Shown in pieces: positions 14,275-24,043 of a DNA stretch of 64,000 nt. The notes under the pieces are model-generated. The model searched no databases. It saw only the letters and a program-made list of their open reading frames with translations, and was not told the origin of the DNA. The DNA lies in contig JAFKFM010000013.1 of the NCBI GenBank assembly GCA_017308135.1, positions 63,437 to 127,436 of the forward strand, written 5' to 3'. Numbering within the stretch: the stretch's first letter is position 1; every line of letters starts with the position of its first letter. This DNA comes from Alphaproteobacteria bacterium (lineage in GTDB: Bacteria > Pseudomonadota > Alphaproteobacteria > CACIAM-22H2). The translations under genes were made by a program, and so were the position numbers.

Positions 14275-14319
14275 ATCGCACCGGACACCGGACCGGTTAC
14301 AGGCTCACGGCGATGTGAA
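14275..14319 (-). promoter_or_regulatory. SigF/ECF16-type promoter (GTAACC-N16-CGAT) with upstream dyad, reading into cusB
   Basis: On the minus strand: TTCACATCGCCGTGAG-CCT-GTAACC-N16-CGAT. It is intergenic, correctly oriented, and one of six copies of this pattern in the window. Confidence 0.6.
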
Positions 14320-14441
14320 AGACCCACTTGAATGGTCATTCGATGCCCCGAAAGCCGATTGATGCCGAGGCCGAACGATTCATGGACGCCTTTCCGAATG
14401 CAAAGTTCATCGATTGGCATGATGATCGGACGGCGGCTGTT

Positions 14442-14711
14442 TCAGCCGTGACGGTCTTTTTGCTTCGGTGCATCTTGCTTGTCGTGACGCTCGTTGCTGG
14501 CCTTCATCATTTGATTGCAGCTTTCCATCATCTGCTGCATTTGGCTCATCATGCCCATCATTCCCTGCATGCCTTGTGAGCCGTTGCCCATCATGGGTTG
14601 ATTGGTTTCCGTCGGCGTCTTCGGTGGCGTGGACGTTTCGTCCGCCTGGACGGCGGCGGAAGCCGCTAACGACGCAATCAATGCGAGCGGGATGAGAGTG
14701 GTGATCTTCAT
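14442..14711 (-). CDS. Small exported Met/Gln-rich protein (putative periplasmic Cu(I)-binding)
   Basis: Signal peptide MKITTLIPLALIASLAASAAVQA. The mature part contains PMMGNGSQGMQGMMGMMSQMQQMMESCNQMM. The start overlaps the upstream gene's stop (ATGA at 14708-14711). Confidence 0.7.
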   Translation of the reverse strand: MKITTLIPLALIASLAASAAVQADETSTPPKTPTETNQPMMGNGSQGMQGMMGMMSQMQQMMESCNQMMKASNERHDKQDAPKQKDRHG

Positions 14712-15058
14712 TTTGTTGCCTTTCTAAAGAATGGCGCGCGTCGGTGGTGAACGCGGGCTGCGGTGCGGTTTGGAGTAGATTGCGACGCTTCGCGTCGCTC
14801 GCATCCCGAGGCATTGTTGCCACGAGAACATAGGTGCAGGGCGCACATGGCCAGACAGGGGAGGACTGGCAGGAGGAATGGCAGGGCACCTGATACCACG
14901 AGCCACCGCCAGTTGAACGCGATTCCGGCAAGCAACGCCGATGCAGCCAAGACCAGCCACAGCGTACGGCTGCGAGAATCAAACGTGCCAAGCATTCGGC
15001 GTTGGACGTCCAACGTTGGCATTAACATGGTCACCGTCGCGTCTTCCCGATCGTTCAT
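14708..15058 (-). CDS. Small two-TM membrane protein, DUF2933-like (LPCxxMC motif)
   Basis: Two hydrophobic helices, the second being FLLPVLPCLAMCALHLC, which resembles DUF2933 proteins seen in metal islands. First gene downstream of the SigF-type promoter at 15114-15139. Start is uncertain (15058, 15028 or 15022). Confidence 0.55.
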   Translation of the reverse strand: MNDREDATVTMLMPTLDVQRRMLGTFDSRSRTLWLVLAASALLAGIAFNWRWLVVSGALPFLLPVLPCLAMCALHLCSRGNNASGCERREASQSTPNRTAARVHHRRAPFFRKATK

Positions 15059-15113
15059 GCACTATGCACCCACGTCTTGGCGCTCACCCTGGAAAGCGAG
15101 CGTCATCTGTTAG

Positions 15114-15158
15114 TTCGGGAAAAGGGTGCGTCCGGTTACAAGCTCACGATCTCGTGAG
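15114..15158 (-). promoter_or_regulatory. SigF/ECF16-type promoter (GTAACC-N16-CGAA) with perfect upstream dyad
   Basis: On the minus strand: CTCACGAGATCGTGAG-CTT-GTAACC-N16-CGAA. The CGAA lies 55 nt upstream of ATG 15058. Confidence 0.7.
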
Positions 15159-15364
15159 ATCAGGCAGCCGACAGGAGTCCATCGGCATCAACGAACCCGA
15201 GGTCAGGTATCGTCTTCGCACTTACGTCCGCCGATGGCACGGCTTCCCGTCTCGAGATGAAGCCGATCTGGAATCCAAACACGCAGCCGATCTTGTCGAG
15301 GGTTCCGCGGGTCGGATTCGCGCCGCCTTCGGGAGTTCCGCGACCTGACGGATGGTCCGTCGAT

Positions 15365-20960: not shown

Positions 20961-21751
20961 TGGGCATCGCGCGATCAACCTATTATGATGCGCCTGCGGC
21001 GCGCACTGGCGATGTCGAGCTGTTGAACGCGATTACCGCGATCTGCGACGAGTTCGAAGCCTATGGCTGGCGCCGCGTGCAGGCGGCGCTTCGCCATCGA
21101 GGCGTGATCGCCAACCACAAGCGGATCAAGCGCCTGATGCGCGAGCACGATCTTCAGCCGCGCCGCCGCAGGCGTTATATCGCCACCACCGACAGCGACC
21201 ATGATCAGCCCATCTTCCCGGATCGTTCGAAGGATATCATCCTTGATGGCCCGGACCAGCTCTGGGTAGCGGACCTGACCTACGTCGCCATCATCGGCGG
21301 CTTTGCCTATGTGGCGATCATCCTCGACGCCTGGTCACGCCGCGTCGTCGGCTATGCGATCGGCAGGTCGATCGACGCGCGGCTCGCGCTCGCGGCGCTG
21401 AAGGTGGCGATCGAGCGACGGCGTCCGCGACCAGGATGCATTCATCATTCGGACCGCGGATCGCAATACGCATCTGGTATCTATCAAGCATTGCTGGCGG
21501 CCCATAACTTAGTCGGCTCGATGAGCCGGCGCGGAAACCCGTACGATAACGCCAAGGCGGAGAGCTTCATGAAGACACTCAAAGTCGAGGCGGTCTATCC
21601 GATGGCATTCGAGACCTTCGACGACATCGCCGAGCAGCTTCCCAGGTTCATCGACGACGTTTACAATCAACGCCGCCTGCATTCCGCGCTCGGCTACATC
21701 AGCCCCGTGCAGTTCGAGGAGCAACATACCCGGCCATGGTCAAATCAGTAG
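20960..21751 (+). CDS. IS3-family transposase OrfB (DDE/rve integrase core)
   Basis: Contains WVADLTYV (first D), [11 protein letters not shown] (second D) and [16 protein letters not shown] (E), the canonical rve catalytic core. Confidence 0.9.
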
Positions 21752-21880
21752 TCTGATTTCTGTCCGGCACCAGGGGCCCACTCCAGTTGTCGTCCAATGG
21801 AGCGTCGAGGCCGAGAACCAGCACCCTGACCTTCCAATTGTTGGAGAGATTACATTGTCCTCTTGAAAGGAGATGAAACA

Positions 21881-22183
21881 ATGGAACTGAATAGAAATCT
21901 GACGACCCGATCTTCTGGCTCTCCGGCGGCCGGCAGAAAGCGAGGTTGGCTCAGTGGATGGAGCGGGCTTGCGGTCTGCGCGGTCGTTTTCGTCGGTGCG
22001 ATCCTTGTGTTCAGTGGCGCGTTCGGCACGCAGAGCGCTGGAAAACTGCTGCCACTGCTGTTCTTGCTGCCGTGTGCAATCATGATGTTGTGCATGAAAA
22101 ATATGGGTGGCAATCAGAACGACACGGGCAGTTCAAATGTCAAAACTGGTGTTCACAAAACCGATTCTGACGACAGACATTGA
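21881..22183 (+). CDS. Small two-TM membrane protein, DUF2933-like (second copy)
   Basis: AAGGAG RBS precedes ATG 21881 (MELNRN). Two TM helices, the second being LLPLLFLLPCAIMMLCM, which parallels 14708..15058. Confidence 0.55.
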   Translation: MELNRNLTTRSSGSPAAGRKRGWLSGWSGLAVCAVVFVGAILVFSGAFGTQSAGKLLPLLFLLPCAIMMLCMKNMGGNQNDTGSSNVKTGVHKTDSDDRH

Positions 22184-22409
22184 CCCTGAGGCTCAGGAAA
22201 AACGTTGCCGGGTAAATTGTGGCTGTCGGTCCGGAGAGAAGGCGTCGTGTCTCGTGAACGCGCGATCCTAGTGTCGTTTGCGACATTACCTTTCCACCCG
22301 ACCGAGTATCAATCATTGCGTAACCAACCTGCGAGAAATTGTTCGCGATTTTATCAGCGCAGAGCATTGAAGCCGCCGTTGCCGGCGATCAGTAGGATAT
22401 CACGGCCAG

Positions 22410-23717
22410 CTATTGACACTTCAAGTGAACGTTTTTGCGACTGCCGATCCCCACGTACCCGCCGTTCTTACCTTTCGTAAGAAAAGTCGGGTCGCTCCAG
22501 GCAAGTACGGTTTTGGAGCGCACTTCAGCATCATCGCTGTCAGCGGTCTCGATCACATCGCTCCCGGAGTGCCCTAAAAATGCGAGCGATCGTGGCTTAT
22601 CGAACGTCTTGGACCAAGACGCGAAGTACGCAATTGCCGTCATTATCGAAAGTCCAGCTACACTGACGAGGATTTGTGCCAACACGGTCTGCGAGCCTGA
22701 CTCCAATACGAAATGGGCCAAGAATGACAGGATAATTCCTGAACAAAAGACATGGAGAGACTGTTCTCCGCATTTGATCAGAGGTTGAAGAATACTGCAT
22801 TGCAAGCCGCTCCAGTTCACGGGCAGAAGCCGTGTCGCCAACAGTGCAATGAACGCAAAATGGATCACGCGGTAAGGAGCGAGGTCGGTCTTGTCATTTG
22901 GATTGAATGCGTCAAAGAGCCATTTTGGAAATTCATTCGCCAGATTCGGGATATGACCGGCCATCGTCATTGCGAATGAAAATAGCAAATAGACGACTCC
23001 AACATAAAGAAGACTTCGTGAACGAATGAGACGGCGTGATCGCTTTGCGCCGCCCACAGCAAACCATGCGCCAAGAACGAACAGCAGCTGCCACGTAAAG
23101 GGATTGAAATACCATGCTCCTTCGGGGTAGGCGGACAAATTCCAGCCGAAATGTCGCGCAGCGAGGTAGAGATACAATGATCCCAACATCGTAGCATCGG
23201 GCAACCGCAACATGAGCCATAAAATTGGCAAGATACCTGCCAAAAGGACAATGTAGAGGGGGAGAACGTCCATGTTAAGGGGCTTGAAACGGAGGAGCAA
23301 GCCCTGGGTAAGGACGTCGAAAGGGTTGCTCACCAAACCGGCAATATTGAATTCATTTATGAGCGTAGGATTATCGTAACTTTGTGCGATATGGCCGATC
23401 ATGGCCGCATACAACACAAACAAGAAAATGTGAGCGACGTAAAGCTGCCAGACGCGCTTCATCAACCAGGACATTCCCGCAACAAAGCCGCGCCGCCGCA
23501 TAATATTCGTGCAAACCAGCGATGTCATATATCCTGACATAAAGATGAAAAGCTCAGCCGCGTCACTGAAGCCGTAGTTTCTGATCGTGATCCACGCGAC
23601 AACGTTGTTTGGAATATGATCAAGAAAGATCGCCCAGTTAGCGATGCCGCGAAACAGATCAAGACGATGATCGCGTCCGCTGATTGGAAGAGTGTTGTTT
23701 GCCGGCGTGTGTACCAT
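22410..23717 (-). CDS. opgC: OpgC-like membrane acyltransferase, paralogue 2
   Basis: RLDLFRGIANWAIFLDHIPNNVVAWITIRNYGFSDAAELFIFMSGY and collinear similarity with 1596..2813 along the TM region. ATG 23717 (MVHTPANN) has a GGAAG RBS; ATG 23789 is an alternative. Confidence 0.75.
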   Translation of the reverse strand: MVHTPANNTLPISGRDHRLDLFRGIANWAIFLDHIPNNVVAWITIRNYGFSDAAELFIFMSGYMTSLVCTNIMRRRGFVAGMSWLMKRVWQLYVAHIFLFVLYAAMIGHIAQSYDNPTLINEFNIAGLVSNPFDVLTQGLLLRFKPLNMDVLPLYIVLLAGILPILWLMLRLPDATMLGSLYLYLAARHFGWNLSAYPEGAWYFNPFTWQLLFVLGAWFAVGGAKRSRRLIRSRSLLYVGVVYLLFSFAMTMAGHIPNLANEFPKWLFDAFNPNDKTDLAPYRVIHFAFIALLATRLLPVNWSGLQCSILQPLIKCGEQSLHVFCSGIILSFLAHFVLESGSQTVLAQILVSVAGLSIMTAIAYFASWSKTFDKPRSLAFLGHSGSDVIETADSDDAEVRSKTVLAWSDPTFLTKGKNGGYVGIGSRKNVHLKCQ

Positions 23718-23998
23718 TTTAACTTCCGACTGCTTGCGTGCGGTGGCCCTGTTTGCGCTCGAACGACTATTCGAAGAAGCGGAATGCATTTGGAGAACCG
23801 ATGTCGGGGATCCGGGCGCGTTGTGGAGGGATCGTTTTGTAAGTAGGTCGGTGTAGCCCGAAAATTGTGTTTGGCTCGATGACGATAGCCCCGTTGTCCA
23901 GAGTGATAACCTTATGCACCCGCTGTGAAGGCTAACCCTCACGGCGATCTCGCGATGTAGTCTGTCAGCGCGGTGATTTGACAATCCCCACAAGGAAG

Positions 23999-24043
23999 TT
24001 CGAAGAGATCACCGTGTTGGTTACAAGTTCACGCTGATGTGAG
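23999..24043 (-). promoter_or_regulatory. SigF/ECF16-type promoter (GTAACC-N16-CGAA) with upstream dyad, reading into opgC paralogue 2
   Basis: On the minus strand: CTCACATCAGCGTGAA-CTT-GTAACC-N16-CGAA. It is intergenic, with a leader of about 205-275 nt depending on the start codon. Confidence 0.65.

Follow-up and report, generated by a model that had tools for sequence, protein, structure and literature searches.

A 64-kb stretch of contig JAFKFM010000013.1 from an Alphaproteobacteria bacterium (64,000 nucleotides (nt), hereafter the window) in all likelihood carries a self-contained stress module, built on a SigF/NrsF pair of extracytoplasmic function (ECF) sigma factor group 16 (ECF16) and accompanied by its regulon, on a conjugative metal-resistance plasmid or integrative and conjugative element (ICE) of Nitrobacteraceae. 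The sigma/anti-sigma pair, the anti-sigma cysteines, six oriented promoters and the conservation of these promoters are directly observed. An earlier sequence-only reading had proposed that a horizontally carried ECF sigma factor directly controls a Cus-type copper pump and several envelope proteins; this interpretation is supported here, in silico only.

An ECF16 sigma factor with its anti-sigma partner

Two overlapping genes encode the core of the module (Table 1). The sigma factor contains Sigma70_r2 (residues 34-95) and Sigma70_r4_2 (residues 123-173) domains as defined by Pfam and scores 314.7 bits against NCBIfam PRK12539 (cutoff 171). It is 93% identical to a protein of Afipia sp. TerB and 49% identical to the sigma factor of a Phenylobacterium locus in which sigF-nrsF is divergent from DUF2282-MNIO-DUF2063-DoxX, the layout found next to sigF-nrsF in Caulobacter (PMC11626156, PMC8224329). 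The Pfam NrsF match of the anti-sigma factor spans the entire model (positions 1-204 of 204). Its C130 (in YWLEC) and C180 (in YALHC), which the sequence-only reading had picked out together with the gene pair, are invariant in 22 aligned homologues of 32-98% identity and have as counterparts C131/C181 in Caulobacter NrsF and C129/C179 in OsrA. The Caulobacter cysteines keep the regulon off (Kohler et al. 2012, PMC3511200), and roles have been shown for both OsrA cysteines (PMC3420878). The sigma domains, a downstream DUF1109 gene, a cysteine pair ~50 residues apart and an autoregulatory promoter are the features of ECF16/NrsF membership found in the window.

Six SigF-type promoters around the sigma gene

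The promoters share the pattern GTAACC-N16-CGAA, rightly named in the sequence-only reading as the Caulobacter sigmaF consensus (Kohler et al. 2012, PMC3511200). The consensus tGTAACc-N16-CGAA has been quoted for ECF group 16, and the ecfF start was mapped 6 bp after the -10 box (Masloboeva et al. 2012, PMC3420878). The exact pattern occurs six times in the window versus 0.04 expected from dinucleotide-preserving shuffles, none of which reached six; an earlier figure of 0.12 at equal base frequencies is arithmetically correct. Allowing up to one mismatch, TGTAACC-N16-CGAA has ten matches versus 0.45 expected. The six exact copies and a CGAT variant at cusB all lie inside ~10 kb around the sigma gene. 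Six sites, five with CGAA and the CGAT variant at 14275-14300(-), are intergenic and oriented to the next gene, whose start lies 15-281 nt further downstream. A pattern scan places all six exactly where the sequence-only reading had put them, and its statement that each is intergenic and points at the next gene holds with the cusB start at ATG 14032 (MDKLTEH), which is supported by alignment with four orthologous loci and equals the annotated start in plasmid orthologues.

The count of six copies given earlier missed a further exact one at 20716-20741(+), which lies within orfA of an IS3-family insertion sequence and is thus coding. The base preceding GTAACC is C in this copy, versus T in 31/31 unique promoter sequences of the island family, and the copy is probably a coding coincidence. 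It runs in the same direction as the DUF2933-like gene cut off by the insertion, and read-through could be conceived. A second CGAT variant (TGTAACC-N16-CGAT, 45321-45347(-)) is antisense in the 5' part of a P-type ATPase gene (45135-47321), in a stretch without conservation in related plasmids. A site upstream of an SPW gene (GAAACC-N16-CGAA, 19374-19399) was dropped as a regulon candidate. The SPW gene was left out of the regulon because this motif is not conserved in orthologues; a TATACT-like box is conserved there instead. The SPW-repeat gene (19300-19400 region) and a neighboring BBP2 porin gene lie amid the regulon units and are not members by motif.

The leader of sigF is very short, with 15 nt from CGAA to ATG, conserved as ...gagggagaRATG, in agreement with ecfF. 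The leaders of cusB, the methyltransferase gene and opgC measure 240-280 nt and are variable and poorly conserved. That of cusB contains a 43-nt tandem duplication (14119-14204; copies 98% identical) absent from four orthologous leaders, which are themselves length-variable. An N-terminal extension of the opgC open reading frame (ORF) from TTG 23993 is judged noncoding, given that the orthologues use the internal ATG as their start and vary in leader length. Scanning of the six intergenic regions with the sigma-70 consensus returned no candidate promoter. Neither Rfam at gathering thresholds nor a tRNA scan gave any match across the window, and the long leaders therefore hold no known RNA element.

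Conservation on conjugative plasmids and in other genera

The region matches three conjugative MOBP/MPF_T plasmids, with 94% identity to plasmid 2 of Nitrobacter hamburgensis X14 and 85% to pOC167 of Afipia carboxidovorans OM5; the third is pBAL398.3 of Rhodopseudomonas sp. BAL398, and the Afipia sp. TerB chromosome (TerB-type loci) also matches. The window further holds TraG, TrbI and TrbL genes together with additional copper, mercury, arsenic and cation-efflux genes, and is therefore read as part of a conjugative plasmid or ICE, in keeping with the horizontal carriage proposed from the sequence. Scanning the related islands revealed promoters at orthologous positions: 6/6 in N. hamburgensis plasmid 2 and in pOC167, five in TerB-type loci and five in the pBAL398.3 stretch, which ends at the record end inside opgC. 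The -35 (GTAACC) and -10 (CGAA) elements and the preceding T are invariant in the orthologues, with diverged spacers and flanks, and 31 unique island-family sequences define the extended consensus TGTAACC-N16-CGAA-yTnA. The cusB promoter has CGAT as its -10 box in the window (14275-14278) and CGAA in 5/5 orthologous loci. Because all five orthologues read CGAA, the CGAT of the window is a derived single-base change.

The consensus is specific to the surroundings of this sigma family: 38 matches were found in 265 kb around ECF16-like sigma genes versus 2 in 962 kb around unrelated ECF sigma genes. ECF16-like loci nearly always have one match just upstream of the sigma gene (most of L007-L022, and the plasmids), and the consensus is common to ECF16 sigma factors 42-65% identical to that of the window. 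Terripilifer, Rhodoplanes and Microvirga likewise have cusB-like genes behind SigF-type promoters, with the order promoter, DUF2933, YtkA, cusB, cusA in Rhodoplanes roseus. The occurrence in three genera argues that the link between this sigma family and Cus efflux is not a peculiarity of one island. The direct control of the Cus pump put forward by the sequence-only reading is thus backed, as a prediction, by phylogenetic footprinting and by the promoters at cusB-like genes elsewhere.

A dyad adjoining the -35 box

Five of the six promoters are adjoined by a dyad, TCAC-N6-GTGA, represented in the window by TCACGAGATCGTGA, TCACGATCTCGTGA, TCACGGCGATGTGA, TCACATAGTCGTGA and TCACGCTGATGTGA. Eight dyads occur in the window versus ~1 expected, and five of them end 3-4 nt upstream of TGTAACC; the remaining three (1227, 31539 and 61411) are at about chance level, those at 1227 and 31539 in coding sequence. 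Across all loci, the dyad accompanies 29 of 69 unique SigF-type promoters, versus 1 in 93 control windows of 200 nt taken further upstream. The gap between dyad and -35 box is 3-6 nt (4 nt in 22/29). The half-sites (yTCACR-N4-CGTGA) are conserved around a variable center that lacks base-pair covariation and lies near -43. Other dyads are located at ~11200 in L009, ~2175 and ~8045 in L010, ~10990 in L015, ~11210 in L016 and ~9340 in L019, and orthologous promoters of small-protein genes from at least five other genera have it next to their -35 box. Bradyrhizobium, Microvirga and a Hyphomicrobiaceae metagenome-assembled genome (MAG) show it, in chromosomal loci, solely at promoters of genes for small exported or membrane proteins. 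The promoter of the sigma gene itself lacks it in these three, and the dyad is therefore an optional add-on rather than part of the core promoter.

Our best guess is that the dyad is the operator of a putative dimeric regulator encoded elsewhere. A hairpin or terminator was rejected, given that central complementarity is at chance (2/16, 6/16) and no T-run follows; the position upstream of the predicted transcription start also disfavors it. The only regulator genes of the window that could be considered are two of the MerR family and one of the ArsR family, whose known operator types differ. Clustering of ORFs from dyad-positive versus dyad-negative loci revealed no linked regulator, and a literature search found no published motif of the form TCAC-N6-GTGA.

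Predicted target genes

The genes behind the six promoters are listed in Table 1. Pfam and NCBIfam matches agree with the gene content described in the sequence-only reading except for one label: the ORF at 14708-15058, called DUF2933-like, has no PF11666 match even at E <= 1, and BLASTP gives no alignment between it and the actual DUF2933-like gene (21881-22183(+)). This ORF is a real gene, because homologues occupy the same place in five other loci (L003, L089, L088, L007 and L019). The Met-rich exported protein encoded next to it is conserved in L087, L088, L089 and L003, and L010 has a similar Met-rich protein behind a SigF-type promoter.

In the copper operon, the best NCBIfam match of cusB is CusB, at 187.6 under a cutoff of 390. 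CusA aligns over its full length with E. coli CusA structures (1218 bits), including three methionines of the Cu(I) site (in YMP, EM and DML), which we take to be the counterparts of E. coli M573/M623/M672. The sole outer-membrane factor gene of the OEP family found in the window (38473-39744) belongs to a separate resistance-nodulation-division (RND) operon (38473-44242) that includes a P-II-like gene.

The methyltransferase is 100% identical, and the OpgC protein (22410-23717) 99.5% identical, to N. hamburgensis plasmid proteins. Another opgC copy resides within ORF 1473-2813 (OpgC_C, 6e-128). The segment containing the second copy (22001-24000) has 51% G+C versus ~60% in the rest of the window, which suggests a different origin. 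A 98%-identical orthologue of the 21881-22183 protein carries the DUF2933 annotation in RefSeq. The 77-residue exported protein has orthologues in L087, L088, L089 and L003. Behind SigF-type promoters in L008, L009, L010, L012, L015 and L016 there are again small exported proteins, bearing one or two Y-x-GGP(K/S) motifs, and no Pfam or NCBIfam family covers these proteins.

Table 1 Features of the predicted SigF regulon region in window coordinates
Feature	Coordinates	Strand	Evidence or context
Promoter 1 (autoregulatory), TGTAACC-N16-CGAA	16573-16599	-	15 nt 5' of sigF ATG; kept in 5 orthologous loci, spacer changed
Promoter 2, TGTAACC-N16-CGAA	15114-15140	-	55 nt 5' of ORF 14708-15058
Promoter 3, TGTAACC-N16-CGAT	14275-14301	-	242 nt 5' of cusB ATG
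Promoter 4, TGTAACC-N16-CGAA	17032-17058	+	57 nt 5' of the 77-residue ORF
Promoter 5, TGTAACC-N16-CGAA	19547-19573	+	276 nt 5' of methyltransferase ATG; dyad absent
Promoter 6, TGTAACC-N16-CGAA	23999-24025	-	281 nt 5' of opgC ATG
Dyad TCACGAGATCGTGA	16603-16616	.	4 nt 5' of promoter 1 -35 box
Dyad TCACGATCTCGTGA	15144-15157	.	adjoins promoter 2
Dyad TCACGGCGATGTGA	14305-14318	.	adjoins promoter 3
Dyad TCACATAGTCGTGA	17016-17029	.	3 nt 5' of promoter 4
Dyad TCACGCTGATGTGA	24029-24042	.	adjoins promoter 6
ECF sigma gene (sigF-like, ECF16), 184 residues	16003-16557	-	Pfam Sigma70_r2, Sigma70_r4_2, Sigma70_ECF
nrsF-like anti-sigma gene (DUF1109), 213 residues	15365-16006	-	Pfam NrsF PF06532 3e-60; overlaps sigF by 4 nt
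Small Cys-containing membrane protein, 116 residues	14708-15058	-	no Pfam/NCBIfam match
Met-rich exported protein, 89 residues	14442-14711	-	signal peptide; ~18% Met in mature part; overlaps 14708-15058 by 4 nt
cusB	12647-14032	-	Pfam HlyD_D23 (CusB barrel-sandwich domain) 1.4e-70
cusA	9453-12650	-	Pfam ACR_tran
cusF	8929-9345	-	Pfam CusF_Ec 4e-26
Multicopper oxidase	7383-8906	-	Pfam Cu-oxidase
DUF411 protein	6916-7359	-	Pfam DUF411
Small exported protein, 77 residues, C-terminal NYRGGPK	17116-17349	+	translation; orthologues in four loci
PEMT/ICMT-like membrane methyltransferase, 216 residues	19850-20500	+	Pfam PEMT 4e-10, ICMT 8e-5
IS3-family insertion	20535-21785	+	orfA 20610-20960, orfB 20960-21751; Pfam HTH_Tnp_1, rve
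DUF2933-like small membrane protein, 100 residues	21881-22183	+	Pfam DUF2933 18.9 bits, just below cutoff 21
OpgC-family acyltransferase, 435 residues	22410-23717	-	Pfam OpgC_C 1.6e-141

Rearrangements within the predicted regulon

The IS3 element has perfect 26-nt inverted repeats and GTT on each flank. The local REARRANGEMENTS concerns the genes on its two sides: the methyltransferase and DUF2933 genes are adjacent behind promoter 5 in N. hamburgensis (L087) and split by IS3 in the window, where the insertion separates the DUF2933-like gene from promoter 5 and divides the original operon. On pOC167, the methyltransferase has been lost and promoter 5 now faces DUF2933. On N. hamburgensis plasmid 2 (L087, 10219-10351), the membrane protein gene behind promoter 2 is cut to a 24-residue remnant, and promoter 2 consequently stands directly before the gene of the Met-rich protein.

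Proposed mechanism

The functional steps proposed for the module are modeled on characterized relatives. NrsF, with six transmembrane (TM) segments, would hold the sigma factor at the inner membrane. Thiol-reactive envelope stress, from copper foremost and maybe from other thiophilic metals or oxidants, would act through C130/C180 and release the sigma factor; copper is the most plausible trigger because of the copper-gene cargo. Sigma-bound RNA polymerase would then start transcription ~6-7 nt downstream of CGAA at the six promoters, amplifying sigF-nrsF itself and switching on five further units. CusBA-CusF, the multicopper oxidase and the DUF411 protein are predicted to export and oxidize periplasmic Cu(I). 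The small membrane protein would be made together with the Met-rich periplasmic protein, which may buffer Cu(I) or serve as a sacrificial methionine sink. The small exported Y-x-GGPK protein would be among the induced products, as would the PEMT/ICMT-like methyltransferase, originally induced jointly with the DUF2933-like protein. Modification of periplasmic glucans or of the envelope would fall to the OpgC acyltransferase. The dyad near -43, which five of the six promoters have, is probably bound by a second dimeric regulator that modulates output.

Alternative explanations

Several points weigh against a self-contained copper-responsive module. The CGAT box may make the cusB promoter weaker, and the long leaders of cusB, the methyltransferase gene and opgC could accommodate extra promoters or regulation. 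The interval 6916-14032 contains no outer-membrane factor gene (OEP family/cusC). Compared with the NCBIfam NrsF equivalog model, NrsF reaches 86.6 bits, far under the cutoff of 300 for Caulobacter NrsF, and the inducing signal therefore need not be identical. The dyad hints that the sigma factor may not be the sole, nor even a metal-specific, input. Finally, the motif alone cannot tell which ECF16 sigma factor uses the promoters, and Nitrobacteraceae chromosomes can carry ECF16 paralogues with much the same consensus, such as EcfF and EcfS in Bradyrhizobium.

Four other explanations were weighed with these points in mind. Chance matches or remnants of a duplicated segment, devoid of promoter function, are hardly credible. 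One exact copy (20716-20741) does sit in a coding region and looks accidental; yet only 0.04 copies are expected, the likeness among copies is limited to the dyad half-sites, TGTAACC and CGAA-yTnA with no longer repeat, and the copies persist across replicons with diverged spacers. Shuffle counts, orthologue conservation and the specificity control already contradict this explanation. Expression of cusBAF, the multicopper oxidase and DUF411 mainly from another promoter in the 242-nt leader, or under another regulator, would reduce the SigF-type site to an auxiliary or decaying element. This is improbable: the long variable leader with its window-specific duplication, the CGAT box and the use of CusRS by Cus operons elsewhere (PMC10141476) speak for it, but 5/5 orthologues have canonical CGAA plus the dyad, no sigma-70-like promoter is predicted in the leader, and cusB-like genes stand behind SigF-type promoters in three other genera. 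Likewise, response-regulator and histidine-kinase domains of a CusRS/CopRS-type two-component system are missing among the larger ORFs scanned in the window (small ORFs were scanned in part).

The remaining two explanations accept the promoters as genuine. A chromosomal ECF16 sigma factor of the host (EcfF- or EcfS-like) might serve them mainly or additionally, so that the island plugs into a host circuit. We regard this as rather unlikely, although the consensus is common to ECF16 sigma factors 42-65% identical to that of the window, Bradyrhizobium has at least two ECF16 members (PMC3420878, among other sources) and the island moves across genera on conjugative plasmids. Against it, every replicon examined has its own sigma/anti-sigma pair and autoregulatory promoter beside the targets, the usual signature of a dedicated pair. 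Use of a host sigma factor and a self-contained module are also mutually compatible. In the last explanation, the decisive metal-specific regulator is the dyad-binding protein, either a copper-released repressor or a class-II-like activator, and the sigma factor provides promoter recognition only; we give this somewhat less than an even chance. It would account for the excess of dyads in the window, with five beside -35 boxes, for their frequency at promoters over control windows, for conserved half-sites around a varying center, as for a dimeric DNA-binding protein, and for dyads at targets yet not at the sigma factor's own promoter in Bradyrhizobium, Microvirga and the Hyphomicrobiaceae MAG. 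However, no gene of the window and none linked to dyad-bearing loci qualifies as a candidate for this regulator, the 3-6 nt gap variation disfavors a strictly phased activator, the literature search returned no motif of this form, and promoter 5 and many ECF16-type promoters lack a dyad. A related reading, in which a dyad regulator gates the ECF16 promoters and the two inputs are sigma release from NrsF and dyad occupancy, is likewise given somewhat less than an even chance, alongside the self-contained SigF/NrsF module that we favor.

Comparison with known systems

In Caulobacter, copper induces the SigF regulon, which forms the core of the response to this metal, and loss of sigF leaves the cells sensitive to copper (PMC8224329, PMC11626156). 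As in the window, the ECF sigma factor of Caulobacter crescentus is co-transcribed with a six-TM DUF1109 anti-sigma factor bearing two cysteines ~50 residues apart, is autoregulated through GTAACC-N16-CGAA and governs a small envelope/periplasmic regulon. The targets differ. Bufferin operons (DUF2282-MNIO-DUF2063-DoxX) and MsrPQ make up the Caulobacter regulon, whereas the window, in which none of these was found, has its sites facing a Cus RND pump, a multicopper oxidase, OpgC, a methyltransferase and other small proteins. Unlike its Caulobacter counterpart, the window pair is borne on a plasmid or ICE; its sigma factor is just 49% identical to that of the Caulobacter-type locus, its NrsF falls below the equivalog cutoff, and no dyad has been described at Caulobacter promoters.

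EcfF-OsrA of Bradyrhizobium japonicum, also from Nitrobacteraceae, pairs an autoregulated ECF16 sigma factor with a DUF1109 anti-sigma factor containing C129/C179 (PMC3420878). In contrast to the window pair, it is chromosomal and responds to hydrogen peroxide, with a looser motif, GTAAC(g,a)-N14-15-(c,t)CG(t,a), and it controls methionine sulfoxide reductases and thiol-redox proteins rather than a metal efflux pump. The Azospira suillum SigF-NrsF pair shares with the window its position on a mobile island, there for perchlorate reduction, and drives MrpX, a Met-rich periplasmic peptide with a signal peptide (PMC4436054). The low-complexity 89-residue protein of the window has a similar make-up, with a signal peptide, ~18% Met versus ~20% in MrpX-like peptides, and a SigF-type promoter. 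The Azospira peptide works with the methionine sulfoxide reductase YedYZ against hypochlorite. Given the neighboring copper genes and the failure to find yedYZ/msrPQ in the window, Cu(I) binding is at least as likely for the window protein.

The RpoQ-RsqA pair (ECF16) of the metal-resistance specialist Cupriavidus metallidurans resembles the window pair, as predicted here, in being autoregulated and induced by metals including copper (PMC13492112, PMC8224329). Its target is the bufferin-type gig cluster; a link to copA2 was reported as negative and indirect, and the cus operons of C. metallidurans are assigned to RpoD promoters. Table 4 of PMC13492112 gives the ECF16 consensus as -35 AATTCG and -10 GGTTAC, the reverse complement of the earlier CGAATT and GTAACC, and this reversal may explain the missing ECF16 motif upstream of rpoQ in that work.

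The cus genes of E. coli (CusRS-cusCFBA) resemble those of the window in CusA, the CusB-type adaptor and the CusF chaperone, and are under two-component control at a sigma-70 promoter. In the window, unlike E. coli, no cusRS and no cusC were found, and a multicopper oxidase and a DUF411 gene are appended. In CnrH-CnrYX, encoded on C. metallidurans pMOL28, a plasmid-borne ECF sigma factor with membrane anti-sigma components directly drives the metal RND pump cnrCBA. This is the closest functional precedent for the wiring proposed here (cnrYXHCBA and CnrH are named in PMC13492112). CnrH differs in belonging to ECF291 (PMC13492112), in the periplasmic metal sensor CnrY/CnrX, in its promoter motif and in responding to Ni/Co rather than Cu.

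Implications for copper regulation on mobile elements

Copper RND pumps are usually described under two-component control, and the ECF sigma factor usually cited for copper is CorE, the only copper-related one named in a review of copper signaling. Our literature search found no report of an ECF16 sigma factor driving a Cus pump, and nothing on the regulation of these plasmids. The locus thus pairs a known type of switch, ECF16 SigF/NrsF, with a different regulon, centered on copper efflux and carried on a mobile element, and the dyad could make more of it. If confirmed, an ECF16 pair would directly drive a Cus pump together with envelope-modifying enzymes, and an entire package of sensor and regulon would travel between genera on conjugative plasmids. 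Copper or thiol stress would become the functional context of the uncharacterized Y-x-GGPK, Met-rich, DUF2933-like and small Cys-containing membrane proteins. The dyad would add a rare case of a transcription-factor site layered on ECF promoters; if our reading of it is true, it would have spread on the mobile element to nearly all promoters, including that of the sigma gene itself, and its regulator would turn a general thiol/oxidant alarm into a copper-specific response.

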